Positions 8,021-32,000 of a stretch of DNA of 32,000 nucleotides are shown piece after piece. The position numbers and the translations under genes were made by a program. Origin of the DNA: Sinorhizobium meliloti (lineage in GTDB: Bacteria; Pseudomonadota; Alphaproteobacteria; Rhizobiales; Rhizobiaceae). The stretch is from contig NZ_JAGIOS010000004.1 of NCBI RefSeq assembly GCF_017876815.1, positions 180,001 to 212,000 of the forward strand. The letters run 5' to 3'. Positions within the stretch are counted from its first letter, which is position 1. Each line of letters starts with the position of its first letter. The notes below the pieces were generated by a model. It was not told where the DNA came from, did not search any database, and saw only the letters and a program-made list of their open reading frames with translations.

Positions 8021-8764
8021 TCACGGCAGGTCTTCGATAAAGGTCGCGGAGAATTTTACGTCGTCGCGCTGCGTTCGCACAGCCGCCGCGGCAGAATATG
8101 CACCCGCAAACGGCCTGCTCCAGAAGTGCCATGTGCTGCCGTCATCTCGTTCGTCACCGACGACGCGACATCGGCGATTACCGTCGAAACCGGAAAACGA
8201 GATATTGCGGATGGGATAGGATATGCCCAGCCCTCGCCCCTTGAGATAAGCTTCCTTCAGTGTCCAGATCTCACAAAAGCGATGCGGCCGATCCGCTTCC
8301 GCCAGCCCCAGCAGCGCCGAACGCTCCTCTGGAGCAAGCACAGTCGGGACCAGATGCCGGTAGTCGACCCTGCTGATCTGCTCGACATCCAGGCCGCAAT
8401 CGGCTTTTTGCGTGAGGATACAGCCCACCAATCCATCGGTATGAGAGAGGTTGAAGCGGATCGGAGCAGAGGACGGCGAGACGAGTTCGGGCCGTCCCCC
8501 GGGTGCAGAAGCAAAAGCCAGTTCACGCGGATCAGCGACCATATAGCGGGCAAGCAACAGCCTGAGCAGGCCATGGCTGAATACGTACATGTCGCGGTCG
8601 CGGTCGAAGACAAAGCGTCGGGCGCGCTGGCGCTCCTCCTCGTTCAGAACGTCGCGGGCCGCATTCCACAGCCTGACGCTTGCTTCCCTCGGCTGGCTCA
8701 GAAAAATATCGACCCGAAGTTCACTGCTCACCTTCCATGGATCCAGGTCGCCCGCCATGCTCAT
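8021..8764 (-). CDS. Sfp-type 4'-phosphopantetheinyl transferase
   Basis: 247 aa carrying the PPTase motifs RFNLSHTDGLVGC, CGLDVEQI and FCEIWTLKEAYLKGRGLG. Its ATG overlaps the upstream stop (ATGA at 8761-8764). Confidence 0.85.
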   Translation of the reverse strand: MSMAGDLDPWKVSSELRVDIFLSQPREASVRLWNAARDVLNEEERQRARRFVFDRDRDMYVFSHGLLRLLLARYMVADPRELAFASAPGGRPELVSPSSAPIRFNLSHTDGLVGCILTQKADCGLDVEQISRVDYRHLVPTVLAPEERSALLGLAEADRPHRFCEIWTLKEAYLKGRGLGISYPIRNISFSGFDGNRRCRVVGDERDDGSTWHFWSRPFAGAYSAAAAVRTQRDDVKFSATFIEDLP

Positions 8765-10756: not shown

Positions 10757-10777
10757 AGTCGGAATTCGCACCACCCT

Positions 10778-11336: not shown

Positions 11337-12872
11337 TCACTCTCTGGTGAGGAAGGCGACTTTTTCCAAGACCAGCAGACTTCGATCGAACAAATGCTTC
11401 ATGCCTCGTTCGCCTGCGTTGATCGCTTCCACAATCAGGCGTGCACTAAGGCAAAGCCGCAACGCGGCAACCTGGACGCCCTCAAGCTCGCCGCAAGGAA
11501 CCGGTTGTCCAACTTCGCAACGAACTGACAACATTGAGTCACCGGGCGTCTTGGCTTTCACGGTCGAATCCTGGCACAAATGATCGTAGATCCTCTTGGT
11601 CTGCGGGACAGCCACCGGATTTCTCCCCGCACGTCGACATACGTGAAACAGTATAAAAGGAAAAATTGTCGGTAGTTCGTCCCAAGAATTGTGAGTGACG
11701 GGCAGATGGCGTTGTAAGGTCGGTTGCTCTAACAGCTGAAAATTAGGCGCATTGTTCAGCCAGGAGGTAACCTCCTTATGAAAGTCAAACACGACGCTTT
11801 GGACATCTTCCTCTGAAACACTACGGAAAGCACGCAACTCCACGAGCGCAGCTTCCCACCGCAAAAGTAAACCAAAATTACTGGCTTCCGGGAGTGACTG
11901 AGCGCCTGCCCAATTTCGTGGCCAGTCTGCCCGGCAAGACTTCGCTCCTGGTATAGGGTGTAGTGGCCGTTTCTTCAAACGGCACGCCAGCGACTCAGGA
12001 ACCAAGAGCATTGCCGAAAAGGCTGGACCTCCCAAAAACTTGGATCCAGTAACTATCACCAAGCAGCCGATGGTAAGGTAGGTTTGCAGCGTCTTCGGTG
12101 CCAATCGAAATTGAGATGCATCGATGAGAATTTCAACACTATCGCGCCAGCGACGCTTCAAATCCAGCGCCTTGCTCGGAGTTGGAGCCAGTACGCCGGT
12201 TTTCGAAACGTCAGTCAACACAATCAAAATACGACTGTACCGCGTTATCGCAGCCGATACTATTGCCTCAAGCTCATCATCGACGGCCGCAATGGGGCGG
12301 AGACGGGCACCTTCCATGCGAACTGCTATCGATCTAACATCAATTGGATCGGCTGGATTAACCCTTATTCCACCACTCTCGCGGTGCGGAGAATGCATAC
12401 CGCCAGCCAGAGCATGACCGATCCCACTCCCCGTCTCCTCCGATTGGACCATAATTGCCAATGTCTTTGCGACGGCGCTTCCTGCGACCAATTTGGAGGC
12501 GAGCATGTGAGCGTCGGTGCCAGAAGGGGAAACGATGAGTTCTAGCCCTTGAATATGCTCCAAACCGCATAAGCCAATGAATTCGGTGCGAAGTCTGTCG
12601 ATCTCTTCTAGATAAAGTTCTTCCGGTGCCCGTCCATGCAAGGTCTGCAATATCCTTTGGCGTAGTTTTTCCGCAGCTGAGAATCCGATGTCAGAAATCG
12701 TAGATGCGGTCGCGGAACCAAATGAGAATATTTCCCGGTCGGGAAGTGGTTTACGACCGTACTTATTTGTCATTTGACCAGCATCAAGTTCGATCCGCTC
12801 GTCACCCCCCAAGGTTAACAACTCAGCGGTCGAAGGAAGGTGAGTATTCAGGTGGGATAGCCGCTCTGTCAT
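11337..12872 (-). CDS. fold-type I PLP-dependent enzyme, aminotransferase class V / cysteine-desulfurase-like
   Basis: 511 aa with [11 protein letters not shown], then IDASQFRL, then [19 protein letters not shown]. The D..Q to Lys spacing (~26 residues) matches class V enzymes, and the Lys in GSKF is the presumed PLP lysine. Its ATG overlaps the NRPS stop (ATGA at 12869-12872). My hand count for 11641-11740 gives 45% GC. Confidence 0.55.
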
Positions 12873-15800
12873 TTGACATCCAGATTTCTGTTCGGGTGGG
12901 TAGTCGGCGAATTGTTTAAGGCTGCTGACAGTTGGCGCGCCAAGACCCGCCGGTTTTCCGGAACAGCCATCATCGTCACGTGATCGCCTGGAACGGGCAC
13001 AGCCTGGATAAACTCCGCGCCCAAAATTCGATCCCAGCCGCGCATTGGTGAACTTGCGTCCGGCCCTGCCGGAAGTCGCGCCCCTCGGCTAAAAGAGTGC
13101 TCCAGAGCATAAAATTGGTGCACGCTGACTGGCAGTGATGGCATCTCATACGAATGCACAGCTTGGTGAAATTGCGCGTATCTGATGGCGTCATAGTAGA
13201 GATCTGGTCTACCGACGACCGCACCGATTTGTCGCGCTTTCTCAAACAACTGCTCAACGGAACTCTGCCCGGCCGATTGGCGCAGCACCTCGAACCCCTC
13301 ATCACCCAGCGACTCCAGAGGTTCAAAGATCATTTGCAAAGCGATTTCTGTATCCGTCATCGCAGGCGACATCGCCGGGATTGGCACATCGATGAATGCC
13401 ATAAATGAAACCGTTTCTTCCAGATTGAGCAGGCGCTCGGCGAGCGCATACGCCAGTACAGCCCCAGAGGAATACCCGGCAAATCGATATGGTCCCCGTG
13501 GCTGCACTTTGCGTACTGCGTGCGCTACTTTTGTTGCAATCTCTTCAAGGCTTGCTCGACGAGCTTCCTCAAATGGCGGCCAAGGCAAAGCGTAGACATG
13601 GCAATCTATGTCCATCTCTCTGACTAAGCGGAACACATATGAGCAGTCGCCATAACCTGTCGGAACAAAGAAGACTGGCGCTTGCGACCCTATCGTGCGA
13701 ACCGGTAGCACACCGGGTGTATAATGGGATGAGTCCAACTCGATCTTCGGAGCGAGGTCTTTGAGGATCGGGGCATCAAAAATGCTGCTGGCGCTGACCT
13801 TCATCCCAAGGGCTAACGCTTGGGCGAGCACGCGCACCGCCAACAATGAGTGGCCGCCGAGTTCGAAGAAGTTGTCGTGGCGCCCGACCTGCTCGACGCC
13901 GAGAAGCTCGGCCCAGATCCCGGCCAGCAGCGTCTCGATCTCGCCCTGCGGCGCCTCGTAGGCCCGACGCGCATAGGCATCGTCGTCGGGGACCGGCAGC
14001 GCCTTGCGGTCGAGCTTGCCGTTCACCGTCAGCGGCAGTGCATCCAGCCGCACGAAGGCCGACGGCACCATGTAGTCCGGTAGCAGGCCACCCAGATGCG
14101 CCCGCAACGACGCAGCAAGCCCGGCGCCATCGGCTTCGGCCGACCCGTCCGTCGTCTTCGCAACCACATAGGCGACGAGCCGCTTGTCGCCCGCCGCATC
14201 CGCGTGCGCCACCACCGCGGCATCGCCGACAAGCTCATGCTCCAGCAGCCGGGCGGCGATCTCGCCCGGCTCGATGCGGAAGCCGCGGATCTTCACCTGG
14301 TCGTCATTGCGGCCCAGAAACTCGAGATTGCCGTCCGGCAGGTAGCGCGCCAGGTCGCCGCTCCGGTACATCCGGGCGCCGGCCTTGCCGCTGAACCGAT
14401 CCGCCAGGAACCGCTCCGCCGTCAGATCCGGACGGTTCAGGTAGCCGCGCGCCACCCCCGCCCCGCCGATATAAAGCTCACCAACCGCCCCAAACGGGAC
14501 GGGTGCGCCATGACCGTCAAGCACATAAAGCCGCGTGTTCGCAATCGGACGGCCGATCGGCACATACCGGTGAGGCGCCTCAATTCTCGTGTCGGTAAGA
14601 AAGGTGGTCGCCCAAATCGTAGTCTCCGTCGGACCATAAAGATTTCTGAGAGATTTTACCCTTCTGCCGAGGTTCGAGGCCAGTTCTGAAGGCAACGCTT
14701 CGCCGCCACACAACGCACTTAAATCGGGCGCACCCTCCCAGCCGGCGTCGAAGAGCATACGCCACGCCGCGGGGGTCGCCTGCATCACAGTTATCTTCTG
14801 ATGGGATAGATACCGCTGTAATCCAATAACACTGGTTCCGTGAGCAACAACGACGTTAGCTCCCACGGCCAGTGGCAGATAGAGTTCCAGCCCCGCAATG
14901 TCGAAAGAGATCGTCGTGATCGCGAGGAGTGAATCGCGCTCTGTGAGGCCCGATACATCTAAAAGAGCGCGTAGAACATTGAGAACACTTGCATGCTCGA
15001 CCATGACGCCCTTAGGCGTGCCGGTGGATCCCGATGTGTAGATGACATAGGCGAGATTGCGGGCTGTCAGGCCGAGGGCATGCGGGTCGGGATCGTCAGC
15101 GGACTGGTCGGCCCAAGCGGGCATGGCCGCATCGAGATCGACCGCGCTCAGATCGGCGATTGCCTCGGCGCCCAACGCCGCGCGGCCGGCGGCGTCGCAA
15201 AGCAGCAGCCGCGGGCCGGCATCGTCGAGCAACTGCCGCAGCCGTTCGCCGGGATAGGCCGGGTCGAGCGGCACATAGGCGCCGCCGGCCTTGAGGATCG
15301 CCAGCAGTCCCACCACCATCGCCGGGCTGCGCTCGACGCAGATCGCCACTGGCTGGTCCGGCCTCACCCCGAGCCCGATCAGATGATGGGCCAGCCGGTT
15401 GGCATCGGCATTGAGCGCGCCATAGGAGATCGACTGCTCTTCGAAGACCAGTGCGACCGCGTCGGGCACCCGGCGCACCTGCGCCTCGAACAGCGCATGC
15501 ACGCAAAGATCCGACGGATAGTCCGCTTCCGTCCGGTTCAACTCCTCCAGCAGGTAGCTGCGCTCCTCAGCCGGAAGAATGTCGAGCTCGCGCACCGGCC
15601 TATCGGGCGCTTGCTCCAGCGCGTCGACCAGTTGCTCGAGCGCCCGCTGCATATAGCCGCAGATCCGATCGGCGGAGATCGGTTCGACCGCATCCGCCGT
15701 GAGCCCCAGCTCCTGACCAAAATCATCCACCGACAATGTCAGCGGGTAGTTGGTCCGTTCCTCGTCCCCCAGCCATTCCATGCCGGACAGCACGTCGCTT

Positions 15801-18800
15801 GTTCCCTCGCCGGCCATGGCCGGCGTGTTGTGGCGATAGTTCAGCAGCGCACTGAACAGTGGCGCTGGTGCGGCAATATCGCTGCAGCGTTGCGCCAATG
15901 CCAGCGAGGCATGCTCGTGTGAGAGCAATTCGGCCAGACGGGCGTGGGCGATACGCACACTTTCCTCGACCCCGGTCTCATCCAGATCCAGCCGCAACGG
16001 CAAGGTATTCATGAACAAGCCCATGGCACGGTCGGCGCCGGCACCCGCATGCATGCGGCCGAACAGCACCGTGCCGAACACCACCTGCTCGCGCCCGCTG
16101 CTCAGCGCCACCACCTGGGCCCAGGCCAGATGGCAAAGGCTAGCCAGACTCACCCCCAGCCGCCGCGCCTGGTGGCGCAGCCGATCGTTGAGCGCCTGCG
16201 GCAGCATCCGCCGTGCCTCGCGGGATCCGCGGCCGTCGCCGTAGACCTCGCTCAGAGCGAACGGCAGGGTCGGCTCGTCGATGTCGGCCAGCATCTCCCG
16301 GAAGAACGCTTCATGCGCTTTGGCATCCATGCCAAGCCGCGCCTGCGCCACCAGGTTGCGGAACGGCTGCGGCGCTGCAAGCTCATGCGCGCGCCCCTGC
16401 AGCACGGCCCGGACCTCGGCATGCATCACTTCGGCCGTCGTATGATCGCCGATCAGATGGTGCTGCAACACCAAAAGCAGCCAGCGCCCACTGCCCGGTT
16501 CGCGCGCGATCACGAACCGCATCAGCGGCGCCCGGCCAAGGTCGAGACGGTACTGGCGCGGATCGAACCGCCGCCTGAGCTCATCGGCGCCGGAACCATC
16601 ACAGCCCTCCAGCTCGACCTCGAGCACATCCAAGGCCGCCTTGCGCCAGACAACCTGCGCCGGGCTCGACAGACCCTCCCAGACAAAGGCCGTGCGCAGA
16701 ATGTCGTGGCGGTCGACCACCTGTTGAACCGCAGCAAGGTAGCGATCGAGCACACCCCGCTCGGCAAAGGCCATCTGCGACATCAGGAGATAGGGGTCAC
16801 CCTGGGTTGCCAGCAAATGATGGAACAGAATGCCGTCCTGCAGCGGCGACAGGCCATAGATATCCTGGATATTGCCGACGCCGCCGGGCACCGTCGACAC
16901 GATCCGGTCGATCTCCGGTTGGGTAAGATCGATCAGCGGCAGCATCTGCGGCGTGATCGCCGTACTCTGTTCCGTGATCGGGTTGGCAGGCACCGCCACC
17001 TCCCGGTGGCTGCCAAGACTGGCGGCCAGATCGGCAAGCATCGGCTTTGCAAATACGGTGCGAACCTCGACCCCGAGCGACAGCCGCCGCAGACGCTCCA
17101 TCATTTGAACGGCCAACAATGAGTGGCCGCCGAGCTCGAAGAAGTTGTCGTGGCGCCCGACCTGCTCGACGCCGAGAAGCTCGGCCCAGATCCCGGCCAG
17201 CAGCGTCTCGATCTCGCCCTGCGGCGCCTCGTAGGCCCGACGCGCATAGGCATCGTCGTCGGGGACCGGCAGCGCCTTGCGGTCGAGCTTGCCGTTCACC
17301 GTCAGCGGCAGTGCATCCAGCCGCACGAAGGCCGACGGCACCATGTAGTCCGGTAGCAGGCCACCCAGATGCGCCCGCAACGACGCAGCAAGCCCGGCGC
17401 CATCGGCTTCGGCCGACCCGTCCGTCGTCTTCGCAACCACATAGGCGACGAGCCGCTTGTCGCCCGCCGCATCCGCGTGCGCCACCACCGCGGCATCGCC
17501 GACAAGCTCATGCTCCAGCAGCCGGGCGGCGATCTCGCCCGGCTCGATGCGGAAGCCGCGGATCTTCACCTGGTCGTCATTGCGGCCCAGAAACTCGAGA
17601 TTGCCGTCCGGCAGGTAGCGCGCCAGGTCGCCGCTCCGGTACATCCGGGCGCCGGCCTTGCCGCTGAACGGATCCGCCAGGAACCGCTCCGCCGTCAGAT
17701 CCGGACGGTTCAGGTAGCCGCGCGCCACCCCCGCCCCGCCGATATAAAGCTCACCAACCGCCCCAAACGGAACCGGCTGACCATGGCCGTCAAGCACATA
17801 AAGCCGCGTGTTCGCAATCGGACGGCCGATATGTGGCACAGCGTCACTGAAGAGCTGTCCCGACGTTGCCACCACAGTAACTTCCGTAGGACCATAGTTG
17901 TTTATTAACTTGAGAGGCGACGGTAGCCGGGAAGGCACACGCTGCAGACGATCACCGCCAATAAGCAAGTACTCCAACAAGGGAGTTACCAGCTCGCCTT
18001 CCAATGCCGTTGCAGCCAGCGGCGTGACTAAAAAGGCGGCGTCCAGTGGTTGATCACGCCACCATTGCAGGAGAAGCAGAGGATCTCCTGCTGCCGGTCT
18101 GGGTGGGAGCAGCAATGTGCTGCGATTGTATAATGCAGACCATAACTCCCAAGCGCTGGCATCGAATGCCACTCCAGCCGTGAGTGTGCAGCAGGTTTCT
18201 GGTTGCGGACAAAATGTTTGCACATGCCATGCTGTGAGATTGACCAGGCTTTGATGCTCGACCATGACGCCCTTAGGCGTGCCGGTGGATCCCGATGTGT
18301 AGATGACATAGGCGAGATTGCGGGCTGTCAGGCCGAGGGCATGCGGGTCGGGATCGTCAGCGGACTGGTCGGCCCAGGCGGGCATGGCCGTATCGAGATC
18401 GACCGCGCTCAGATCGGCGATTGCCTCGGCGCCCAACGCCGCGCGACCGGCGGCGTCGCAAAGCAGCAGCCGCGGGCCGGCATCGTCGAGCAACTGCCGC
18501 AGCCGTTCGCCGGGATAGGCCGGGTCGAGCGGCACATAGGCGCCGCCGGCCTTGAGGATCGCCAGCAGTCCCACCACCATCGCCGGGCTGCGCTCGACGC
18601 AGATCGCCACTGGCTGGTCCGGCCTCACCCCGAGCCCGATCAGATGATGGGCCAGCCGGTTGGCATCGGCATTGAGCGCGCCATAGGAGATCGACTGCTC
18701 TTCGAAGACCAGTGCGACCGCGTCGGGCACCCGGCGCACCTGCGCCTCGAACAGCGCATGCACGCAAAGATCCGACGGATAGTCCGCTTCCGTCCGGTTC

Positions 18801-21800
18801 AACTCCTCCAGCAGGTAGCTGCGCTCCTCAGCCGGAAGAATGTCGAGCTCGCGCACCGGCCTATCGGGCGCTCGCTCCAGCGCGTCGACCAGTTGCTCGA
18901 GCGCCCGCTGCATATAGCCGCAGATCCGATCGGCGGAGATCGGTTCGACCGCATCCGCCGTGAGCCCCAGCTCCTGACCAAAATCATCCACCGACAATGT
19001 CAGCGGGTAGTTGGTCCGTTCCTCGCCCCCCAGCCATTCCATGCCGGACAGCACGTCGCTTGTTCCCTCGCCGGCCATGGCCGGCGTGTTGTGGCGATAG
19101 TTCAGCAGCGCACTGAACAGTGGCGCTGGTGCGGCAATATCGCTGCAGCGTTGCGCCAATGCCAGCGAGGCATGCTCGTGTGAGAGCAATTCGGCCAGAC
19201 GGGCGTGGGCGATACGCACACTTTCCTCGACCCCGGTCTCATCCAGATCCAGCCGCAACGGCAAGGTATTCATGAACAAGCCCATGGCACGGTCGGCGCC
19301 GGCACCCGCATGCATGCGGCCGAACAGCACCGTGCCGAACACCACCTGCTCGCGCCCGCTGCTCAGCGCCACCACCTGGGCCCAGGCCAGATGGCAAAGG
19401 CTAGCCAGACTCACCCCCAGCCGCCGCGCCTGGTGGCGCAGCCGATCGTTGAGCGCCTGCGGCAGCATCCGCCGTGCCTCGCGGGATCCGCGGCCGTCGC
19501 CGTAGACCTCGCTCAGAGCGAACGGCAGGGTCGGCTCGTCGATGTCGGCCAGCATCTCCCGGAAGAACGCTTCATGCGCTTTGGCATCCATGCCAAGCCG
19601 CGCCTGCGCCACCAGGTTGCGGAACGGCTGCGGCGCTGCAAGCTCATGCGCGCGCCCCTGCAGCACGGCCCGGACCTCGGCATGCATCACTTCGGCCGTC
19701 GTATGATCGCCGATCAGATGGTGCTGCAACACCAAAAGCAGCCAGCGCCCACTGCCCGGTTCGCGCGCGATCACGAACCGCATCAGCGGCGCCCGGCCAA
19801 GGTCGAGACGGTACTGGCGCGGATCGAACCGCCGCCTGAGCTCATCGGCGCCGGAACCATCACAGCCCTCCAGCTCGACCTCGAGCACATCCAAGGCCGC
19901 CTTGCGCCAGACAACCTGCGCCGGGCTCGACAGACCCTCCCAGACAAAGGCCGTGCGCAGAATGTCGTGGCGGTCGACCACCTGTTGAACCGCAGCAAGG
20001 TAGCGATCGAGCACACCCCGCTCGGCAAAGGCCATCTGCGACATCAGGAGATAGGGGTCACCCTGGGTTGCCAGCAAATGATGGAACAGAATGCCGTCCT
20101 GCAGCGGCGACAGGCCATAGATATCCTGGATATTGCCGACGCCGCCGGGCACCGTCGACACGATCCGGTCGATCTCCGGTTGGGTAAGATCGATCAGCGG
20201 CAGCATCTGCGGCGTGATCGCCGTACTCTGTTCCGTGATCGGGTTGGCAGGCACCGCCACCTCCCGGTGGCTGCCAAGACTGGCGGCCAGATCGGCAAGC
20301 ATCGGCTTTGCAAATACGGTGCGAACCTCGACCCCGAGCGACAGCCGCCGCAGACGCTCCATCATTTGAACGGCCAACAATGAGTGGCCGCCGAGTTCGA
20401 AGAAGTTGTCGTGGCGCCCGACCTGCTCGACGCCGAGAAGCTCGGCCCAGATCCCGGCCAGCAGCGTCTCGATCTCGCCCTGCGGCGCCTCGTAGGCCCG
20501 ACGCGCATAGGCATCGTCGTCGGGGACCGGCAGCGCCTTGCGATCGAGCTTGCCGTTCACCGTCAGCGGCAGTGCATCCAGCCGCACGAAGGCCGACGGC
20601 ACCATGTAGTCCGGTAGCAGGCCACCCAGATGCGCCCGCAACGACGCAGCAAGCCCGGCGCCATCGGCTTCGGCCGACCCGTCCGTCGTCTTCGCAACCA
20701 CATAGGCGACGAGCCGCTTGTCGCCCGCCGCATCCGCGTGCGCCACCACCGCGGCATCGCCGACAAGCTCATGCTCCAGCAGCCGGGCGGCGATCTCGCC
20801 CGGCTCGATGCGGAAGCCGCGGATCTTCACCTGGTCGTCATTGCGGCCCAGAAACTCGAGATTGCCGTCCGGCAGGTAGCGCGCCAGGTCGCCGCTCCGG
20901 TACATCCGGGCGCCGGCCTTGCCGCTGAACCGATCCGCCAGGAACCGCTCCGCCGTCAGATCCGGACGGTTCAGGTAGCCGCGCGCCACCCCCGCCCCGC
21001 CGATATAAAGCTCACCAACCGCCCCAAACGGAACCGGCTGACCATGGCCGTCAAGCACATAAAGCCGCGTGTTCGCAATCGGACGGCCGATCGGCACATT
21101 CGTCGATGCGGAAAGATCTGCAGGGATGTCATGGAAAGCACAACCGACAACCGCTTCCGTCGGGCCATACTCGTTGACCATTCTAGCCGCCGGCTGGATC
21201 TGACGCCATAGCTCGACCGTCGAAGACGACAATGCCTCACCGCCAATGACGAGCACCTCCACCTGACTGGCATCTCCAGCCGACTGCAGTTGCTGTCCAA
21301 GAACATCCAGATGGCTCGGGGTGACATTGACCAGCCCGCACGGTGTGCCGACCCTTGACCTGATCCCCTCGACCTCGTCCCCCTCTTTCGTAAGCAATGC
21401 ATGGCCGCCAGAGACCAAAGGCGCAAACAGGCTGTTGACCGTGGCATCGAAGGCGAGCGAAGAGGAGACGACGGATGAGGATATGGGAGCGTAGCTCTCA
21501 CGAGCCCAGCTTAGATAATTGGTCATCCCGCGATGCTCGACCATGACGCCCTTAGGCGTGCCGGTGGATCCCGATGTGTAGATGACATAGGCGAGATTGC
21601 GGGCTGTCAGGCCGAGGGCATGCGGGTCGGGATCGTCAGCGGACTGGTCGGCCCAGGCGGGCATGGCCGTATCGAGATCGACCGCGCTCAGATCGGCGAT
21701 TGCCTCGGCGCCCAACGCCGCGCGACCGGCGGCGTCGCAAAGCAGCAGCCGCGGGCCGGCATCGTCGAGCAACTGCCGCAGCCGTTCGCCGGGATAGGCC

Positions 21801-24800: not shown

Positions 24801-27800
24801 ACATAGGCGAGATTGCGGGCTGTCAGGCCGAGGGCATGCGGGTCGGGATCGTCAGCGGACTGGTCGGCCCAGGCGGGCATGGCTGCATCGAGATCGACCG
24901 CGCTCAGATCGTCGATTGCCTCGGCGCCCAACGCCGCGCGGCCGGCGGCGTCGCAAAGCAGCAGCCGCGGGCCGGCATCGTCGAGCAACTGCCGCAGCCG
25001 TTCGCCGGGATAGGCCGGGTCGAGCGGCACATAGGCGCCGCCGGCCTTGAGGATCGCCAGCAGTCCCACCACCATCGCCGGGCTGCGCTCGACGCAGATC
25101 GCCACTGGCTGGTCCGGCCTCACCCCGAGCCCGATCAGATGATGGGCCAGCCGGTTGGCATCGGCATTGAGCGCGCCATAGGAGATCGACTGCTCTTCGA
25201 AGACCAGTGCGACCGCGTCGGGCACCCGGCGCACCTGCGCCTCGAACAGCGCATGCACGCAAAGATCCGACGGATAGTCCGCTTCCGTCCGGTTCAACTC
25301 CTCCAGCAGGTAGCTGCGCTCGTCGGGAGGCAGGATGTCCAGCTCGGACACCGGCTGCTCGGCATCGGCAAGCATCGCCCGCAGCAGCGCCAGCAGATAA
25401 CCACATTGCCGCTCGATCGTCGCCCGGTCGAACAACGCCGTCGCATAACCGAGAGTCCCGGCGATGGCCTCGCCCTGCTCTCCCAGGTTCAGTTCCAGAT
25501 CGAACTTGACCTGATCGAGCCCCTCGCCCGCAGCCTCCACCTGCAGCCCCGGCAGGTCCAATGACCCGCCGGTGTTGTTCTGCCAGGCCAGTCCCACCTG
25601 GAACAACGGCGTGTGACCGAGAGCCCGGGGCGGCTGGACGATCTCCACCACCTGCTCGAACGGCAGGTCCTGATGATCCTGCGCAGTCAAGGCCGCGCGC
25701 CGCGCCCGTTCCAGGAGATCGGACACGCTCGGCTCGCCCGACAGATCGATTCGAACCGCCAGGGTGTTGACGAAGAAACCGATTAGATCCTCGATCTCGC
25801 GGCGACGACGATTGGCCGTCGGCACACCGATCACGATATCGTCCTGCCCGGACAGGCGCGACAGCACCGCAGCCCAGGCCGCCAGCACTGTCATGAACAA
25901 CGTCGTGCCATGCTGCCGGCTCAGCCGCTTGAGCCCGCGCGTCAGAGCCTCATCGATGATAACCGGCACGCTGGCTCCGGCAAACGACTGCTGTGCCGGC
26001 CGCGGCCGGTCCGTCGGCAGCGCCAGACGGGCCGGGGCGCCAGACAGGGTGTCGCGCCAATACTGCGCCTGACGCTGCAGCCGCTCGCCGGACAACCATT
26101 GCCGTTGCCAGGCGGCATAATCCGGATACTGGATCGCCAGCGGCGGCAAAGGATCGTCCTCTCCAGCCTCAAACGCGCGGTAAAGGCTGCTGAGCTCGCG
26201 CACCAGCACCCCCATCGACCAGCCGTCCGAGACTATGTGATGCTGCGTCAGCAGAAAGACGTGCTCCTCATCCGCCAGCCGGATCAGCCGGCCGCGGATC
26301 AGCGGCTCGCGCGCCAGATCGAACGGCGTGCGCGCCTCTTCTTGGCACAGATCCAAAAGCGCGGCTTGCGCATCCGGCCTGTCCCGCAGATCGTGCTCGA
26401 CCACCGGCAATCCCCTGTCCCCGGACAAAATCTGGACCTGCGGGTCATCCTCTCCGGCGACGAACGTGCAGCGCAGCGCCTCGTGACGGGCAAACAGGCG
26501 GTCAAGGCTGCGCCGCCAGGCGACACGGTCGAGTCTGCCCTGCAGTCGCCACCCCAGGGGAATGTTATAGTTCGTGCTGTCTTCGTCCAACTGTGCCAAG
26601 AACCAGAGACGCTGCTGCGAATAGGACAGCGGAAGCGCACCATCACGTCCGACTGGCATGATGACCGGTGCTGTCTGCGCACCAGAACCGTTCAGCACTT
26701 CGCCAACACTTAGCGCCAAATCGGCCAATGTTGGCTTGGCGAACAGGATCGCCAGCGGCAGCTCCACTGCCAAGGCCTCGGTCAGCCGGACGAGCACGCG
26801 CACCGCCAACAATGAGTGGCCGCCGAGCTCGAAGAAGTTGTCGTGGCGCCCGACCTGCTCGACGCCGAGAAGCTCGGCCCAGATCCCGGCCAGCAGCGTC
26901 TCGATCTCGCCCTGCGGCGCCTCGTAGGCCCGACGCGCATAGGCATCGTCGTCGGGGACCGGCAGCGCCTTGCGATCGAGCTTGCCGTTCACCGTCAGCG
27001 GCAGTGCATCCAGCCGCACGAAGGCCGACGGCACCATGTAGTCCGGTAGCAGGCCACCCAGATGCGCCCGCAACGACGCAGCAAGCCCGGCGCCATCGGC
27101 TTCGGCCGACCCGTCCGTCGTCTTCGCAACCACATAGGCGACGAGCCGCTTGTCGCCCGCCGCATCCGCGTGCGCCACCACCGCGGCATCGCCGACAAGC
27201 TCATGCTCCAGCAGCCGGGCGGCGATCTCGCCCGGCTCGATGCGGAAGCCGCGGATCTTCACCTGGTCGTCATTGCGGCCCAGAAACTCGAGATTGCCGT
27301 CCGGCAGGTAGCGCGCCAGGTCGCCGCTCCGGTACATCCGGGCGCCGGCCTTGCCGCTGAACGGATCCGCCAGGAACCGCTCCGCCGTCAGATCCGGACG
27401 GTTCAGGTAGCCGCGCGCCACCCCCGCCCCGCCGATATAAAGCTCACCAACCGCCCCAAACGGAACCGGCTGACCATGGCCGTCCAGCAGATAGATCCGC
27501 GTGTTCGAGATCGGACGCCCGATCGTTTCGACAACAGCCTGTCCCCTCGGCATGCAAATCCAAGTCGAGTACGTCGTTGTCTCCGAAGGGGCGTACAGAT
27601 TGCAAATCTTCTGGACGCGCGTGCTCTCGAATATCCTCTCGATTAGGTCTGCCTTCACCCGCTCGCCCGCCAAATTGATGACGCTTGCCGATGCCGGCAC
27701 GGCTTTCTGGTTGACCAGAGCGGTGATCGCCGAGGGGACCGTGTTGATCAAGGAGGCATCCACGGGCGTTCGGGCCAGCTTCAGTGCATCCTCGACGAGG

Positions 27801-30800
27801 TACAGCTTGCTTCCCTGCGAAAGCGGAAGGAAACACTCGTAAACGGACAGATCAAAACAGACCGAGGTCGAGAACAGCGTGCGCCTGATCTCTGATTCGG
27901 CAAACACGCCGCCACTCCAATGCAGCAGGTTCACTGTGTTCCGATGCTCGACCATGACGCCCTTAGGCGTGCCGGTGGATCCCGATGTGTAGATGACATA
28001 GGCGAGATTGCGGGCTGTCAGGCCGAGGGCATGCGGGTCGGGATCGTCAGCGGACTGGTCGGCCCAGGCGGGCATGGCCGTATCGAGATCGACCGCGCTC
28101 AGATCGGCGATTGCCTCGGCGCCCAACGCCGCGCGACCGGCGGCGTCGCAAAGCAGCAGCCGCGGGCCGGCATCGTCGAGCAACTGCCGCAGCCGTTCGC
28201 CGGGATAGGCCGGGTCGAGCGGCACATAGGCGCCGCCGGCCTTGAGGATCGCCAGCAGTCCCACCACCATCGCCGGGCTGCGCTCGACGCAGATCGCCAC
28301 TGGCTGGTCCGGCCTCACCCCGAGCCCGATCAGATGATGGGCCAGCCGGTTGGCATCGGCATTGAGCGCGCCATAGGAGATCGACTGCTCTTCGAAGACC
28401 AGTGCGACCGCGTCGGGCACCCGGCGCACCTGCGCCTCGAACAGCGCATGCACGCAAAGATCCGACGGATAGTCCGCTTCCGTCCGGTTCAACTCCTCCA
28501 GCAGGTAGCTGCGCTCGTCGGGAGGCAGGATGTCCAGCTCGGACACCGGCTGCTCGGCATCGGCAAGCATCGCCCGCAGCAGCGCCAGCAGATAACCACA
28601 TTGCCGCTCGATCGTCGCCCGGTCGAACAACGCCGTCGCATAACCGAGAGTCCCGGCGATGGCCTCGCCCTGCTCTCCCAGGTTCAGTTCCAGATCGAAC
28701 TTGACCTGATCGAGCCCCTCGCCCGCAGCCTCCACCTGCAGCCCCGGCAGGTCCAATGACCCGCCGGTGTTGTTCTGCCAGGCCAGTCCCACCTGGAACA
28801 ACGGCGTGTGACCGAGAGCCCGGGGCGGCTGGACGATCTCCACCACCTGCTCGAACGGCAGGTCCTGATGATCCTGCGCAGTCAAGGCCGCGCGCCGCGC
28901 CCGTTCCAGGAGATCGGACACGCTCGGCTCGCCCGACAGATCGATTCGAACCGCCAGGGTGTTGACGAAGAAACCGATTAGATCCTCGATCTCGCGGCGA
29001 CGACGATTGGCCGTCGGCACACCGATCACGATATCGTCCTGCCCGGACAGGCGCGACAGCACCGCAGCCCAGGCCGCCAGCACTGTCATGAACAACGTCG
29101 TGCCATGCTGCCGGCTCAGCCGCTTGAGCCCGCGCGTCAGAGCCTCATCGATGATAACCGGCACGCTGGCTCCGGCAAACGACTGCTGTGCCGGCCGCGG
29201 CCGGTCCGTCGGCAGCGCCAGACGGGCCGGGGCGCCAGACAGGGTGTCGCGCCAATACTGCGCCTGACGCTGCAGCCGCTCGCCGGACAACCATTGCCGT
29301 TGCCAGGCGGCATAATCCGGATACTGGATCGCCAGCGGCGGCAAAGGATCGTCCTCTCCAGCCTCAAACGCGCGGTAAAGGCTGCTGAGCTCGCGCACCA
29401 GCACCCCCATCGACCAGCCGTCCGAGACTATGTGATGCTGCGTCAGCAGAAAGACGTGCTCCTCATCCGCCAGCCGGATCAGCCGGCCGCGGATCAGCGG
29501 CTCGCGCGCCAGATCGAACGGCGTGCGCGCCTCTTCTTGGCACAGATCCAAAAGCGCGGCTTGCGCATCCGGCCTGTCCCGCAGATCGTGCTCGACCACC
29601 GGCAATCCCCTGTCCCCGGACAAAATCTGGACCTGCGGGTCATCCTCTCCGGCGACGAACGTGCAGCGCAGCGCCTCGTGACGGGCAAACAGGCGGTCAA
29701 GGCTGCGCCGCCAGGCGACACGGTCGAGTCTGCCCTGCAGTCGCCACCCCAGGGGAATGTTATAGTTCGTGCTGTCTTCGTCCAACTGTGCCAAGAACCA
29801 GAGACGCTGCTGCGAATAGGACAGCGGAAGCGCACCATCACGTCCGACTGGCATGATGACCGGTGCTGTCTGCGCACCAGAACCGTTCAGCACTTCGCCA
29901 ACACTTAGCGCCAAATCGGCCAATGTTGGCTTGGCGAACAGGATCGCCAGCGGCAGCTCCACTGCCAAGGCCTCGGTCAGCCGGACGAGCACGCGCACCG
30001 CCAACAATGAGTGGCCGCCGAGCTCGAAGAAGTTGTCGTGGCGCCCGACCTGCTCGACGCCGAGAAGCTCGGCCCAGATCCCGGCCAGCAGCGTCTCGAT
30101 CTCGCCCTGCGGCGCCTCGTAGGCCCGACGCGCATAGGCATCGTCGTCGGGGACCGGCAGCGCCTTGCGGTCGAGCTTGCCGTTCACCGTCAGCGGCAGT
30201 GCATCCAGCCGCACGAAGGCCGACGGCACCATGTAGTCCGGTAGCAGGCCACCCAGATGCGCCCGCAACGACGCAGCAAGCCCGGCGCCATCGGCTTCGG
30301 CCGACCCGTCCGTCGTCTTCGCAACCACATAGGCGACGAGCCGCTTGTCGCCCGCCGCATCCGCGTGCGCCACCACCGCGGCATCGCCGACAAGCTCATG
30401 CTCCAGCAGCCGGGCGGCGATCTCGCCCGGCTCGATGCGGAAGCCGCGGATCTTCACCTGGTCGTCATTGCGGCCCAGAAACTCGAGATTGCCGTCCGGC
30501 AGGTAGCGCGCCAGGTCGCCGCTCCGGTACATCCGGGCGCCGGCCTTGCCGCTGAACGGATCCGCCAGGAACCGCTCCGCCGTCAGATCCGGACGGTTCA
30601 GGTAGCCGCGCGCCACCCCCGCCCCGCCGATATAAAGCTCACCAACCGCCCCAAACGGAACCGGCTGACCATGACCGTCCAGAAGATAGATCCGAAGATC
30701 CGGAATCCGTTCGCCGATCGGACCGCATGAGCTGGACGTATCAGACTTGTTAAGAAGCCGATAGGTCACATGCACAGTCGTCTCTGTGATGCCGTACATG

Positions 30801-32000
30801 TTGATCAGCCGTGGGGCATGCTCACAATGCCGTTCGAACCACGGCTTAAGAGAGGAAGGCTCCAGGGCCTCGCCTCCAAAAATCAAATAGCGAAGCTGGT
30901 TGCGAACTCCACTCTCACGCTCGGCTTCGATCAGAGCTTTAAACGCCGAGGGCGTCTGGTTGAGCACCGTGGCGCTTGACTTGCAAACCAGCGTATAAAA
31001 GTCGGGAGCAGAGCGAGCTATATGCTCCGGTACGAGAACCAGACGGCCACCACAGTGGAGCGCTCCCCACAACTCCCAAACCGAGAAGTCGAATGAGAAA
31101 GAATGAAACAGGCACCAGACATCGCGCTCGTTGAAATCGTACCAGCTCCGCGTCGCCTCAAACAAACGGACAATTTGCGCATGCTCGACCATGACGCCCT
31201 TAGGCGTGCCGGTGGATCCCGATGTGTAGATGACATAGGCGAGATTGCGGGCTGTCAGGCCGAGGGCATGCGGGTCGGGATCGTCAGCGGACTGGTCGGC
31301 CCAGGCGGGCGTGGCCGCATCGAGATCGACCGCGCTCAGATCGTCGATTGCCTCGGCGCCCAACGCCGCGCGGCCGGCGGCGTCGCAAAGCAGCAGCCGC
31401 GGGCCGGCATCGTCGAGCAACTGCCGCAGCCGTTCGCCGGGATAGGCCGGGTCGAGCGGCACATAGGCGCCGCCGGCCTTGAGGATCGCCAGCAGTCCCA
31501 CCACCATCGCCGGGCTGCGCTCGACGCAGATCGCCACTGGCTGGTCCGGCCTCACCCCGAGCCCGATCAGATGATGGGCCAGCCGGTTGGCATCGGCATT
31601 GAGCGCGCCATAGGAGATCGACTGCTCTTCGAAGACCAGTGCGACCGCGTCGGGCACCCGGCGCACCTGCGCCTCGAACAGCGCATGCACGCAAAGATCC
31701 GACGGATAGTCCGCTTCCGTCCGGTTCAACTCCTCCAGCAGGTAGCTGCGCTCGTCGGGAGGCAGGATGTCCAGCTCGGACACCGGCTGCTCGGCATCGG
31801 CAAGCATCGCCCGCAGCAGCGCCAGCAGATAACCACATTGCCGCTCGATCGTCGCCCGGTCGAACAACGCCGTCGCATAACCGAGAGTCCCGGCGATGGC
31901 CTCGCCCTGCTCTCCCAGGTTCAGTTCCAGATCGAACTTGACCTGATCGAGCCCCTCGCCCGCAGCCTCCACCTGCAGCCCCGGCAGGTCCAATGACCCG
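12869..32000 (-). CDS. non-ribosomal peptide synthetase, 3' portion (>=6374 codons): ...C-A-T-C-A-T-C-A-T-C-A-T-C'-A-T-C'-A-T-TE; 5' end outside the window
   Basis: A single uninterrupted reading frame runs to the right window edge. The track 'M' at 31993 is an internal TTG Leu of the repeated ...[10 protein letters not shown]... motif, and the frame stays open through 32000. It contains six copies of the A-domain cores ([21 protein letters not shown], Nx[67 protein letters not shown]) and six [12 protein letters not shown] carrier motifs. It also has three complete [11 protein letters not shown] domains plus one partial, two HHLIGDH C domains, and a terminal GYSSG thioesterase. Confidence 0.97.
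12872..13700 (-). other. NRPS thioesterase (TE) domain (approximate bounds)
   Basis: [17 protein letters not shown]; the GxSxG nucleophile elbow [10 protein letters not shown] is encoded at ~13451-13479; a C-terminal [10 protein letters not shown] supplies the His. My hand count for 13141-13240 gives 51% GC, unlike the ~70% GC scaffold. Confidence 0.85.
13995..15564 (-). other. A domain 6 (last module), predicted Gly (approximate bounds)
   Basis: Code extracted by alignment to GrsA positions: [11 protein letters not shown] / MQATPAA / ALCGGEA / [13 protein letters not shown] / NGKLDRK gives DILQLGLIWK, identical to the classical Gly code. The unique cassette is ~14568-14992. Confidence 0.75.
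15574..16874 (-). other. C' domain (non-canonical His motif HHLIGDH; candidate dual epimerisation/condensation), copy 2
   Basis: N-terminal [26 protein letters not shown], with HHLLATQGD encoded at 16797-16823. The active-site [14 protein letters not shown] has HHLIGDH at 16442-16462. It is preceded by the variant carrier [23 protein letters not shown] and the linker [26 protein letters not shown]. Confidence 0.6.
17268..18825 (-). other. A domain 5, predicted Leu-like hydrophobic residue (approximate bounds)
   Basis: [11 protein letters not shown] / FLVTPLA / LLIGGDR / [13 protein letters not shown] gives DAWLLGNVVK, one position from the classical Leu code DAWFLGNVVK. The unique cassette is ~17831-18253. 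Confidence 0.6.
18835..20135 (-). other. C' domain (HHLIGDH type; candidate dual E/C), copy 1
   Basis: Same sequence as 15574-16874 shifted by 3261 bp, with HHLLATQGD at 20058-20084 and HHLIGDH at 19703-19723. Only two amino-acid differences are visible (WLGDEE vs WLGGEE, ALEQAP vs ALERAP). Confidence 0.6.
20529..22104 (-). other. A domain 4, unassigned specificity code DANNVGEVGK (approximate bounds)
   Basis: [11 protein letters not shown] / VNVTPSH / LVIGGEA / [13 protein letters not shown] gives DANNVGEVGK. It is identical to A domain 3 except for the 39-codon patch at 21325-21440, which changes code positions 239 and 278. Confidence 0.6.
22125..23420 (-). other. canonical C domain ([10 protein letters not shown]), copy 3 of 3 complete copies
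   Basis: [17 protein letters not shown] is encoded at ~23388-23420 and [14 protein letters not shown] at ~22995-23035. Copies at +3216 and +6411 bp give identical translations. Confidence 0.85.
23745..25320 (-). other. A domain 3, predicted Asn (approximate bounds)
   Basis: [11 protein letters not shown] / VKITPSH / LVIGGEA / [13 protein letters not shown] gives DATKVGEVGK, identical to the classical Asn code. Confidence 0.75.
25341..26636 (-). other. canonical C domain ([10 protein letters not shown]), copy 2
   Basis: Same translation as 22125-23420, shifted by 3216 bp. Confidence 0.85.
26961..28515 (-). other. A domain 2, predicted small residue (Ala-like), tentative
   Basis: VCFDLSVYE / INTVPSA / INLAGER / [13 protein letters not shown] gives DLYNNALTYK. 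The closest code I remember is DLFNNALTYK (Ala). The unique cassette is ~27485-27943. Confidence 0.45.
28536..29831 (-). other. canonical C domain ([10 protein letters not shown]), copy 1
   Basis: Same translation as 22125-23420, shifted by 6411 bp. Confidence 0.85.
30156..31752 (-). other. A domain 1 (first in window), predicted Thr
   Basis: FSFDFSVWE / LNQTPSAF / LIFGGEA / [13 protein letters not shown] gives DFWNIGMVHK, identical to the classical Thr code. The unique cassette is ~30672-31180. Confidence 0.75.
31773..32000 (-). other. C-terminal tail of a fourth canonical C domain (truncated by window edge)
   Basis: ...[60 protein letters not shown] matches the tails of the three complete canonical C domains. 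Confidence 0.8.

Follow-up and report, generated by a model that had tools for sequence, protein, structure and literature searches.

A plasmid-borne Sinorhizobium NRPS in which near-identical scaffold blocks, very probably homogenised between modules, alternate with distinct specificity cassettes

The window analysed here, a stretch of 32,000 nucleotides from an accessory plasmid of Sinorhizobium meliloti, carries on its minus strand the last six modules and the TE domain of an NRPS, in which near-identical scaffold blocks alternate with distinct cassettes. It is very probable that these modules belong to a two-gene NRPS of up to 16 modules, whose scaffold blocks are kept alike by intermodule recombination while the cassettes remain static or are replaced whole. 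As such, the enzyme would show, in very clean natural form, a route by which such enzymes are known to evolve. The NRPS open reading frame extends over positions 12869 to 31993 of the minus strand and is open past the window end, with the domain order [LCL partial]-A-T-LCL-A-T-LCL-A-T-LCL-A-T-E/C-A-T-E/C-A-T-TE, and the Pfam domains Condensation, AMP-binding, AMP-binding_C, PP-binding and Thioesterase were identified in it. The window contains 19.1 kb of NRPS, of which 15.3 kb is repeated scaffold; ~8 kb of unique sequence suffices to encode the 19.1 kb, and chance cannot be the source of this repetition.

A module may be described as four kinds of DNA block, namely T2+C+C-A linker (LCL or dual E/C), A-N, A-core cassette and A-C+T1 (Table 1). 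The initial annotation had proposed three scaffold elements, the two outer parts of the A domain and the C domains, to be alike in every copy. For both A blocks this was confirmed, as the six copies of the A-domain N-terminal (A-N) block contain 6 variable sites (no more than 4 differences per pair) and those of the A-C-terminal/half-T (A-C+T1) block contain 12 (no more than 11 per pair). It does not hold for the C blocks, which are of two unrelated kinds, LCL and dual E/C, sharing 26% amino-acid identity; near-identity is found only within each kind, including the partial fourth T2+LCL copy at the window edge, which is identical to the three full ones. Most of the few variable scaffold sites among the window copies are synonymous. 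The single-base examples given by the annotation were all found, these being C on the plus strand at 14397 and 20931 where the other four copies have G (ADRFSG versus ADPFSG), GAC/GAT within LDRKA and GAA/GAG within FFELGG.

Table 1. Positions of NRPS blocks and neighbouring genes in the window, with NRPS blocks listed from module 1 to module 6
Feature	Position	Strand	Remarks
Second NRPS gene, 3' part	12869..32000	-	single open frame, 6376 codons in window, runs off window end
T2+LCL partial fourth copy (C-terminal end of LCL domain + C-A linker)	31754..32000	-	246 bp, 0 differences
A-N block, module 1 (C-A linker end to motif A3, ...PKGVMVEH)	31181..31753	-	one of six 573-bp copies
Cassette e, 501 bp	30680..31180	-	code DFWNIGMVH(K); GC 54.7%
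A-C+T1 block, module 1 (motifs A6-A10, T domain to [12 protein letters not shown])	29996..30679	-	one of six 684-bp copies
T2+LCL+linker block, copy 1	28517..29995	-	1479 bp, 0 differences among three
A-N block, module 2	27944..28516	-	573-bp repeat
Cassette b, 459 bp	27485..27943	-	code DLYNNALTY(K), motif-position reading
A-C+T1 block, module 2	26801..27484	-	684-bp repeat
T2+LCL+linker block, copy 2	25322..26800	-	1479-bp repeat
A-N block, module 3	24749..25321	-	573-bp repeat
Cassette A, 480 bp	24269..24748	-	code DATKVGEVG(K), motif-position reading
A-C+T1 block, module 3	23585..24268	-	684-bp repeat
T2+LCL+linker block, copy 3	22106..23584	-	1479-bp repeat
A-N block, module 4	21533..22105	-	573-bp repeat
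Cassette a, 480 bp	21053..21532	-	code DANNVGEVG(K); nested 115-nt variant of cassette A
A-C+T1 block, module 4	20369..21052	-	684-bp repeat
T2+dual E/C+linker block, copy 1	18827..20368	-	HHLLATQGD + HHLIGDH motifs; 1542 bp, 2 differences between copies
A-N block, module 5	18254..18826	-	573-bp repeat
Cassette f, 462 bp	17792..18253	-	code DAWLLGNVV(K), motif-position reading
A-C+T1 block, module 5	17108..17791	-	684-bp repeat
T2+dual E/C+linker block, copy 2	15566..17107	-	1542-bp repeat
A-N block, module 6	14993..15565	-	573-bp repeat
Cassette c, 474 bp	14519..14992	-	code DILQLGLIW(K), motif-position reading
A-C+T1 block, module 6	13835..14518	-	684-bp repeat
Second half of last T domain (unique) + thioesterase domain + stop codon	12869..13834	-	Pfam Thioesterase; GC 55%
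orf511, conserved cluster gene, putative	11337..12872	-	start overlaps NRPS stop codon
Sfp-type 4'-phosphopantetheinyl transferase	8021..8764	-	Pfam ACPS + AASDHPPT_N

The variable part of the modules is confined to the A-core cassettes of 459–501 bp, which begin directly behind motif A3, end shortly ahead of motif A6 and hold nine of the ten specificity-code residues. In the window these are 34–49% identical when codon-aligned per block and 57–66% when each pair is optimised, and substitutions are not spread evenly over scaffold and cassettes. The 5' cassette edge is common to all, directly after VMVEH, and the 3' edges are spread over ~60 nt; cassettes A and a differ only at cassette nucleotides 94–208. 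The scaffold is GC-rich (68%) and the cassettes GC-poor (54.7% in cassette e), for which homogenisation alone gives no account. Motif positions were used to read the specificity codes, which were then compared with canonical codes, and the putative substrates are presumably Thr-like for cassette e, Ala-like for b, Asn-like for A, Leu-like for f and Gly-like for c. The NRPS enzymes are probably active. A pN/pS of 0.22 indicates purifying selection on the cassettes, and scaffold dN/dS is 0.04 in A-C/T1, 0.05 in E/C and 0.4 in LCL.

Complete relatives possess up to 16 such modules with seven cassette types. Strain ml46 has 16 modules over two genes and WSM419 likewise has 16 on pSMED03, with the same anchor motifs in each module, and the numbers across strains are 16, 16, 16, 15, 14 and 3, the three-module version being an intact ORF (the count of 11 for ml56 is unreliable, its assembly being indel-rich with frameshifts). 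Strains vary in module number, cassette order and C type, so that comparison of orthologous loci, as had been proposed, did reveal differences in both module number and cassette content. In five assemblies, the last six modules carry their cassettes in one and the same order. Collinear arrays with differences at individual blocks support the view of the enzyme as a plug-in-cassette NRPS: at module 9, ml46 has cassette c where ml29 has b; at module 15, the meliloti/medicae lineage has cassette f where Rhizobium sp. 007 has g; and the C block upstream of the module 6 A domain is LCL in ml29 and E/C in ml46. In S. terangae and S. kostiense, cassette g occurs at the second-to-last module, in the only part of these arrays that was examined.

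Scaffold versions are plasmid-specific. When S. meliloti ml46 is compared with S. medicae WSM419, 31 differences are fixed in every block copy within one genome (7 in A-N, 4 in A-C/T1, 14 in LCL and 6 in E/C), and one of those in A-N is a 3-bp indel that 16 of 16 copies share. Mean pairwise differences are 2.8–4.1 within a genome versus ~12 between these two strains for the A blocks, and 0.8–1 versus 15.6 for the LCL block. Scaffold divergence is 0.2–0.6% within a plasmid versus 1.1–2.1% between strains, even inside S. meliloti, and of 120 pairs of informative paralogous sites, 81 show all four allele combinations. The initial annotation had offered two possible causes, serial duplication in the very recent past or intragenic gene conversion that is still going on, and the differences fixed in all copies, together with divergence being lower within a plasmid than between strains, support the latter, with homogenisation of the scaffold still ongoing and gene conversion sparing the specificity cassettes.

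The former, in which one module was duplicated serially and very recently and its copies then took up different cassettes without any further exchange among them, is improbable. Runs of adjacent modules with the same cassette (a a a, c c, b b), and the 100% identity of same-type cassettes within ml46, do have the look of fresh tandem duplication. However, the 31 fixed differences, one an indel, in all copies of one lineage would demand either re-expansion of both arrays or homogenisation, cassette order is common to S. meliloti and S. medicae at both array ends, and collinear arrays differ at single blocks with length unchanged. In Rhizobium sp. 007, the whole cassette order is the same with scaffold copies that are 0–19% divergent and ~80% identical to the meliloti scaffold; recent serial duplication by itself therefore cannot have given rise to the array, and the multi-module array would predate the coalescence of its scaffolds. 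Paralogues of S. terangae and S. kostiense are 9–15% divergent. An explanation by serial duplication only is thus largely refuted, and these sequences indicate an array older than its scaffold homogenisation.

Somewhat less probable still is an artefact of assembly or polishing, by which the repeats or their near-identity would result from collapse or consensus smoothing of diverged modules. Near-identical 2.7-kb repeats are difficult to assemble, and ml56 shows frameshifts and a shorter array. The window and ml46 differ at 33 of 19132 NRPS bases, ~30 of them at sites already variable among paralogues as expected from mis-phased polishing, and at none across 5.8 kb (4.9 kb of flank and the last 0.9 kb of the NRPS); this reshuffling of paralogous variants could in part be mis-phasing and not real conversion. 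Nevertheless, the repeats recur elsewhere, both in a finished genome of the 2007 era and in several complete plasmid records. The same architecture is present in the finished WSM419 replicon pSMED03 (NC_009622.1), part of a Sanger-era JGI genome, and in complete plasmid records of independent origin, at least six in number and from three laboratories/countries, with intact frames of up to 11063 codons. The constant order of the last six modules, the unequal unit lengths in the window (3195–3273 bp) with unique cassettes separating the repeats, and independent short-read contigs that stop ~18 bp inside the repeated T block also argue against an artefact, and lineage-specific fixed differences are not expected from smoothing. 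Purifying selection on the protein alone (e.g., strict inter-domain interfaces), with no DNA exchange, would fit the low dN/dS of the A-C/T1 and E/C blocks, but is refuted to the point of negligible probability because synonymous sites are identical as well (0 differences over 3 x 1479 bp), and selection at the protein level could not carry one identical synonymous change, or a 3-bp indel, to fixation in 16 copies.

Under the favoured explanation of intermodule recombination, the T2+C, A-N and A-C+T1 blocks would be held near-identical plasmid-wide by continuing homologous recombination between tandem modules, presumably of the RecA type. Gene conversion and unequal crossing-over, two processes not cleanly separable here, would together produce concerted evolution. 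The cassettes would be too dissimilar for piecemeal conversion and would either stay put or be replaced whole, with their identical flanks acting as homology arms, and whole modules could be gained or lost in frame through unequal exchange. The outcome would be strain-specific peptides of varied length and sequence from one common framework.

Concerted evolution, A-core swaps and T-domain breakpoints are each already published, and the Sinorhizobium NRPS is apparently a so far undescribed, extreme member of the concertedly evolving kind. Concerted evolution of NRPS and PKS has been described, with the syringopeptin NRPS and mycolactone PKS as extreme cases (Medema et al., 2014; PMC4256081). 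As in those systems, paralogous domains are homogenised within the cluster by internal recombination and copies branch by cluster rather than position; unlike them, homogenisation in Sinorhizobium ends sharply within the A domain, so that seven or eight cassettes of sub-domain size remain, and a relative that shares the module order but is not homogenised is at hand for comparison. Nucleotide identity is also far higher than is usual among NRPS paralogues (99.4–100% over 16 modules). The mycolactone PKS, from the 2004 work of Stinear and colleagues, is reportedly plasmid-borne with most of its length built from a few kb of unique sequence, in which the Sinorhizobium enzyme resembles it, although being an NRPS.

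Natural A-core subdomain swaps that leave the C-A linker and Asub in place (PMC8097286) are known from microcystin, hormaomycin, Ahp-cyclodepsipeptide and pyoverdine synthetases (Baunach et al., 2021, PMC8097286; Calcott et al., 2020, PMC7486941; these papers in turn refer to Crusemann 2013 and Kries 2015). Likewise, the unit exchanged in Sinorhizobium lies inside the A-core, the C-A linker, Asub and Asub-T interface are retained and C domains are unchanged while the substrate changes. Those swaps were inferred between orthologous clusters of different strains with diverse breakpoints, whereas in Sinorhizobium all cassettes stand side by side in one gene, with a common 5' edge, closely spaced 3' edges and flanks identical in DNA. 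A T-domain breakpoint at FFxxGGxS, with the second T half tracking the downstream C domain, underlies the XUT concept (Bozhuyuk et al., bioRxiv 10.1101/2022.12.02.518901). The Sinorhizobium block boundary also lies at FFxxGGxS, four codons past the Ser, at [12 protein letters not shown], and its second T half co-varies with the downstream domain (LCL, E/C or TE); this boundary is seen directly, as near-identical DNA blocks alternating in one gene, while that of XUT came from tree incongruence.

Among solved structures, the closest to a window module, and its best match by sequence in the PDB, is the linear gramicidin synthetase LgrA (E = 5e-245). Both are long multi-module NRPSs whose first protein begins with a formyltransferase-type domain, but in relatives of the Sinorhizobium NRPS this is followed by a C domain (F-C-A-T), and the enzyme has dual E/C domains, not a separate E, and ends in a TE domain. 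We know of no repeated scaffold in Lgr.

With regard to neighbouring genes, the product of orf511 had no match in Pfam, NCBIfam or PDB, and this gene adjoins related NRPS genes in other rhizobia too. The Sfp-type transferase is the likely activator of the NRPS carrier domains. Over the flank (window positions 8000–13800), the S. meliloti plasmids CP140885.1 and CP140923.1 match the window at 100% identity, and the NRPS resides on accessory plasmids of S. meliloti and S. medicae, most of which are conjugative.

The NRPS reading frame lies on the minus strand and continues past the end of the window, and its translation contains six A and six T domains with a terminal TE. The condensation domains are of two alternative kinds, with three complete LCL domains, one LCL domain cut by the window edge and two dual E/C domains. 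Pfam matches were obtained to Condensation, AMP-binding, AMP-binding_C, PP-binding and Thioesterase, several stretches per family occurring in both halves of the protein. Motifs A3, A8 and A10 and the T-domain GGxS serine are each found six times, the C-domain HHxxxD motif takes the form HHIVSDG (three copies) or HHLIGDH (two copies), and the TE carries GYSSG. These are the domains and core motifs of a modular type I NRPS of the form (C-A-T)n-TE, to which the enzyme is assigned on the basis of its sequence, with its peptide product and its activity predicted.

The coding sequence is composed of direct repeats with a 3.2-kb period and 97–100% identity. When the six units were aligned by codon, identity within the scaffold (the blocks that recur in every module) was 0.94–1.00, falling abruptly to 0.34–0.49 over approximately 160 codons. 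The A-N block, from the end of the C-A linker to motif A3 (573 bp, six copies), has 6 variable sites, and the block comprising A-C and the first half of T (684 bp, six copies) has 12. The block of the second half of T, LCL and linker (1479 bp, three copies and a 246-bp partial copy) has none, and that of the second half of T, dual E/C and linker (1542 bp, two copies) has 2. In total, the NRPS portion of the window measures 19.1 kb, and repeated scaffold accounts for 15.3 kb of it. The codon alignment and the variable-site counts of each block confirm the proposal of the initial annotation that a near-identical scaffold carries distinct cassettes, and the single-base differences it had listed as examples were all correct. 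Its statement that one C-domain sequence is present in every copy does not hold, as there are two versions, unrelated to each other and sharing 26% amino-acid identity.

Both E/C copies carry HHLIGDH together with an N-terminal HHLLATQGD motif. Dual epimerisation/condensation domains reportedly combine the HHxxxD active site with an N-terminal HH[I/L]xxxxGD, a signature said to go back to Balibar in 2005 and Rausch in 2007, and dual activity is predicted for the two blocks from this motif. All six T domains in the window are identical up to a breakpoint at FFxxGGxS, beyond which there are three versions of the second half of T, each paired with a downstream LCL, E/C or TE. This switch, with the second half of T following the downstream domain, is that of the XUT-type breakpoint (Bozhuyuk et al.). 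Two plus-strand ORFs of 392 codons run antisense to the repeated E/C block; these and the other long plus-strand ORFs across the NRPS are not genes but a side effect of repeated, GC-rich coding sequence.

The variable segment of the A core, here termed the cassette, has a 5′ edge common to all types, directly after ...GTCGAGCAT (VMVEH) and a few codons beyond motif A3, and a 3′ edge which is spread over approximately 60 nt immediately upstream of motif A6, at a junction reading DGHG. Because its edges fall after A3 and before A6, the cassette holds motifs A4 and A5 and the specificity positions 235–331. The sequence flanking the cassettes is identical and preserves the C-A linker, Asub and the A-T interface. 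As in the A-core exchange units of Baunach 2021 and Crusemann 2013, the exchanged segment is confined to the A core, carries the specificity residues and differs at orthologous positions.

Cassettes were typed by alignment scoring, their specificity codes were read by motif register, and substrates were predicted by comparison with canonical codes. Cassettes e (DFWNIGMVH), c (DILQLGLIW) and A (DATKVGEVG) have codes that coincide exactly with the canonical ones of Thr, Gly and Asn, respectively, which are their predicted substrates. Those of b (DLYNNALTY), f (DAWLLGNVV) and g (DAFWLGGTF) are presumably Ala-like, Leu-like and Val-like, respectively, again as predictions, and that of a reads DANNVGEVG. 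Differences between a and A are confined to nt 94–208, which is a nested 115-nt micro-cassette spanning positions 239 and 278. Seven types (a, A, b, c, d, e, f) occur in the arrays of S. meliloti ml46 and S. medicae WSM419, and the eighth, g, in more distant relatives. In ml46, cassettes of one type are 100% identical to each other. Modules 10 and 13 of WSM419 have chimeric cassettes with an a-type 5′ part and an e-type 3′ end, so breakpoints can fall inside cassettes too, and strain AK21 has a variant LDDHG junction beside its a cassettes.

Related arrays are found on plasmids of other Sinorhizobium strains. BLAST of the window against five related loci gave identities of 99.5–99.9%, with no assembly identical to it. 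Positions 8000–13800 are 100% identical to the plasmids of S. meliloti ml46 and ml56, whereas identity to plasmids of S. medicae, among them WSM419 pSMED03, is 95.5–95.8%. Part of this flank was matched by 38 PLSDB records, and in 16 of them the match reached the 3′ end of the NRPS. The synthetase is encoded by two genes and has 16 modules both in ml46 (11063 and 6778 codons) and in WSM419 (8915 and 8914 codons), with the same scaffold anchors in 32 of 32 modules. Gene 1 (CP140885.1 146978–180169) starts with a Formyl_trans_N domain (Pfam) fused directly to a scaffold-type LCL, giving the order F-C-A-T.

Module arrays of related loci (L or E, C block upstream of the cassette; slash, gene boundary; ml56, with 11 modules, was left out owing to an error-rich assembly with indels in cassettes)
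Strain	Modules	Cassette string
S. meliloti ml46	16	F L.a E.a E.a E.b E.c E.c L.b L.d E.c E.b / L.e L.b L.A L.a E.f E.c TE
S. meliloti Em1132	15	ml46 string minus module 7
S. meliloti AK21	14	F L.a E.a L.a E.c L.b L.d E.b / L.e E.b L.b L.A L.a E.f E.c TE
S. medicae WSM419	16	F L.a E.a E.a E.d E.b E.b E.c E.b / L.b L.a L.e L.A L.a L.a E.f E.c TE
S. medicae ml29	16	ml46 string, but with LCL in place of E/C upstream of module 6 and b in place of c in module 9
S. medicae ml42	3	F L.a E.f E.c TE, in an unbroken ORF of 3732 codons
S. medicae ml49	3	ml42 string, disrupted
R. leguminosarum Vaf10	remnant	interrupted by IS21

Comparison of orthologous loci, which the initial annotation had suggested, indeed revealed that module number (16, 15, 14 or 3) and cassette content vary among strains, with the array of S. 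medicae ml42 and ml49 collapsed to three modules. The split between the two proteins (tail ...SRSLK-stop, head MTDFVIGQLEEL...) occurs after module 10 in ml46 and ml29, module 8 in WSM419 and module 7 in AK21, and therefore the docking junction moves with module rearrangements. At module 15 the cassette is f in the meliloti/medicae lineage but g in Rhizobium sp. 007; S. terangae and S. kostiense, in the part of their arrays that was fetched, likewise have g one module before the last. The nearest protein relatives of the scaffold are from Rhizobium (93–95%), S. kostiense (85%), and Mesorhizobium and Bradyrhizobium (74–80%). Many relatives from Bradyrhizobium, Mesorhizobium and Mycetohabitans are partial proteins on contigs of approximately 4.2 kb, a hint that in those genomes, too, short-read assembly is interrupted by repeated module scaffolds.

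The repeats and their identity are very unlikely to be artefacts of assembly, since the same architecture is present in the finished WSM419 genome and, with intact frames, in complete plasmid records that are independent of one another and come from Russia, Kazakhstan, Canada and China. Short-read contigs of unrelated data sets end approximately 18 bp into the repeated T block. Only the way in which paralogous variants are phased within a given assembly could still be artefactual.

The initial annotation had offered two origins for the homogeneity, recent serial duplication or gene conversion that spares the cassettes, and only the second withstands comparison with the relatives. The cassette order of Rhizobium sp. 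007 matches that of S. medicae ml29 over 15 modules, yet its scaffold copies are only patchily alike (0–19% divergence) and are approximately 80% identical to the meliloti scaffold. In S. terangae and S. kostiense the scaffold paralogues of the last three modules are 9–15% divergent, and the S. meliloti scaffold is approximately 12–19% divergent from all three of these relatives. As order has been conserved while the scaffolds of the relatives diverged, the multi-module array predates scaffold coalescence in the meliloti/medicae lineage, and recent serial duplication is therefore excluded as the origin of the identity.

Concerted evolution through gene conversion is supported by what is seen between strains. 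ml46 and WSM419 are separated by 31 differences that are each uniform within a genome (A-N 7, A-C/T1 4, LCL 14, E/C 6), those of A-N including a 3-bp indel present in 16/16 copies of one genome. Mean pairwise differences for the A blocks are 2.8–4.1 within a genome vs. approximately 12 between these two, and for the LCL block 0.8–1 vs. 15.6. Overall, scaffold divergence is 0.2–0.6% within a plasmid and 1.1–2.1% between strains, and it is 1.1–2.0% between S. meliloti ml46, Em1132 and AK21. All four gametes were observed in 81 of 120 site pairs formed from 16 informative paralogous sites of ml46. The findings are those by which concerted evolution is recognised (Medema 2014), namely paralogues closer to each other than to positional orthologues, lineage-specific changes in all copies and a four-gamete signal of recombination. 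The window differs from ml46 at 33 of 19132 NRPS bases, approximately 30 of these being at sites already variable among paralogues, with zero differences over 5.8 kb comprising 4.9 kb of flank and the last 0.9 kb of the NRPS. Purifying selection on the NRPS is evident, with a cassette pN/pS of 0.22 and scaffold dN/dS of 0.04 (A-C/T1), 0.05 (E/C) and 0.4 (LCL).

Mechanistically, tracts of perfect homology of 0.6–2.7 kb between tandem modules would start conversion tracts and unequal exchanges. Exchange would then halt at the non-homologous cassette or, with both flanks engaged, transfer a whole cassette or a block of the second half of T and C. Such a mechanism would account for the sharp 5′ edge common to the cassettes, the homogeneity at synonymous sites, the gain and loss of modules in frame and the replacement of single blocks between otherwise collinear arrays.

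The gene is also a mosaic in base composition. Every repeated block has a GC content of 66–69% and a GC3 of 0.79–0.84, whereas the unique parts of the same ORF (cassettes, TE, F domain and docking tails) have a GC content of 49–59% and a GC3 of mostly 0.50–0.65, and the GC3 of these unique parts resembles that of neighbouring cluster genes. Rhizobium sp. 007, S. terangae and S. kostiense show the same mosaic, as does Bradyrhizobium cajani in milder form. Recent homogenisation was rejected as its source, the same contrast being present where scaffold copies are 9–19% divergent (milder in Bradyrhizobium cajani), and since less homogenised relatives share it, the mosaic predates the extreme homogenisation. 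It may have arisen when a GC-rich scaffold was grafted, long ago, onto a synthetase poor in GC. GC-biased gene conversion could also have produced it. Scaffold variants polarised against three outgroups, Rhizobium sp. 007, S. terangae and S. kostiense, gave W>S:S>W ratios of 5:19 (rare), 3:23 (intermediate) and 86:176 (high frequency), a shift which, although confounded by the long outgroup branch, runs in the direction expected for GC-biased conversion. The same shift is, however, expected under any force favouring GC.

It is tempting to regard the homogenised framework as a generator of diversity at the population level, beyond a by-product of recombination, with the long-standing GC3 gap, which extends over four genera, as a possible footprint of GC-biased gene conversion, but we consider this unlikely. 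Under such a role, the identical arms of 0.6–2.7 kb would allow cassettes to be permuted rapidly on the accessory plasmids, most of which were typed as conjugative, and the same arms would permit switching of C type (L or D residue) and changes in peptide length. If true, it would imply strain-specific peptides in rhizobia competing for the same legume hosts and, within one bacterial gene, a trace left by GC-biased gene conversion.

Each of these features has precedents. Concerted evolution of NRPS/PKS domains is established, with syringopeptin and mycolactone named as extremes (PMC4256081), and has also been documented elsewhere (PMC9205934). Swapping of A-core subdomains, with the C-A linker and Asub left in place, is described as the dominant way in which NRPs diversify (PMC8097286; PMC7486941), and the FFxxGGxS breakpoint, at which the second half of T goes with the C domain downstream of it, is the basis of XUT engineering (bioRxiv 10.1101/2022.12.02.518901). 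In this locus the three occur together within a single gene, at a DNA identity close to 100%. It shares near-identity of same-function domains and plasmid location with the mosaic megasynthase of the mycolactone type, but that system is a PKS and the present enzyme an NRPS, so that it behaves similarly without being a member. LgrA, the closest solved structure, opens F-A-T, unlike the F-C-A-T of gene 1. No paper on this Sinorhizobium or pSMED03 NRPS was found in the literature searched, which covered few subscription journals and is thus weak evidence of undescribed status. We regard the locus as an extreme example of an already known kind and as apparently undescribed.

NRPS engineering is limited by uncertain exchange points and by possible rejection of foreign substrates by C domains, and this gene offers natural evidence on both. 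Its junctions are exact, lying at VMVEH and DGHG for the cassette and in the FFxxGGxS region for the T domain. Seven or eight A-core cassettes, predicted as Thr, Ala-like, Asn, Gly, Leu-like, Asp-like and Val-like with one lacking assignment, sit in one DNA-identical framework. The three LCL domains in the window, 100% identical in nucleotide sequence, lie between three different donor/acceptor cassette pairs, which suggests that these C domains may be permissive. There is also a natural variant series of 16, 15, 14 and 3 modules, with replacements of a single cassette or a single C block and a non-homogenised relative in the same order, by which the rate and mechanism of megasynthase concerted evolution and the tolerance of sub-domain swaps become directly measurable. 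The peptide predicted from these accessory plasmids of legume symbionts would apparently be N-formylated and rich in D-residues.

Features of the window on and beside the NRPS
Feature	Position	Strand	Remark
NRPS frame	12869–31993	-	
392-codon ORF	15944–17122	+	antisense to E/C block
392-codon ORF	19205–20383	+	antisense to E/C block
orf511, 511 codons	11337–12872	-	start overlaps NRPS stop codon
SagB-type dehydrogenase and Sfp-type phosphopantetheinyl transferase	within 5405–9582	-	downstream of NRPS
IS701 transposase	6722–7936	-	
P450 remnant	5405–6166	-	
ParB-N-like gene		-	downstream
249-codon gene		-	downstream
Indolepyruvate oxidoreductase		-	downstream
Carboxyltransferase		-	downstream

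For orf511, the gene directly 3′ of the NRPS, Pfam, NCBIfam and PDB sequences all gave no match. Its conservation extends over Rhizobium and Sinorhizobium (85–97%), Bradyrhizobium (61%), Paraburkholderia mimosarum (54%) and two MAGs (41–44%), an adjoining NRPS being confirmed in the Rhizobium and Sinorhizobium loci only. The match of the P450 remnant is limited to the N-terminal ~165 residues, and at the site of the IS701 transposase both ml46 and ml56 have an IS66 element.
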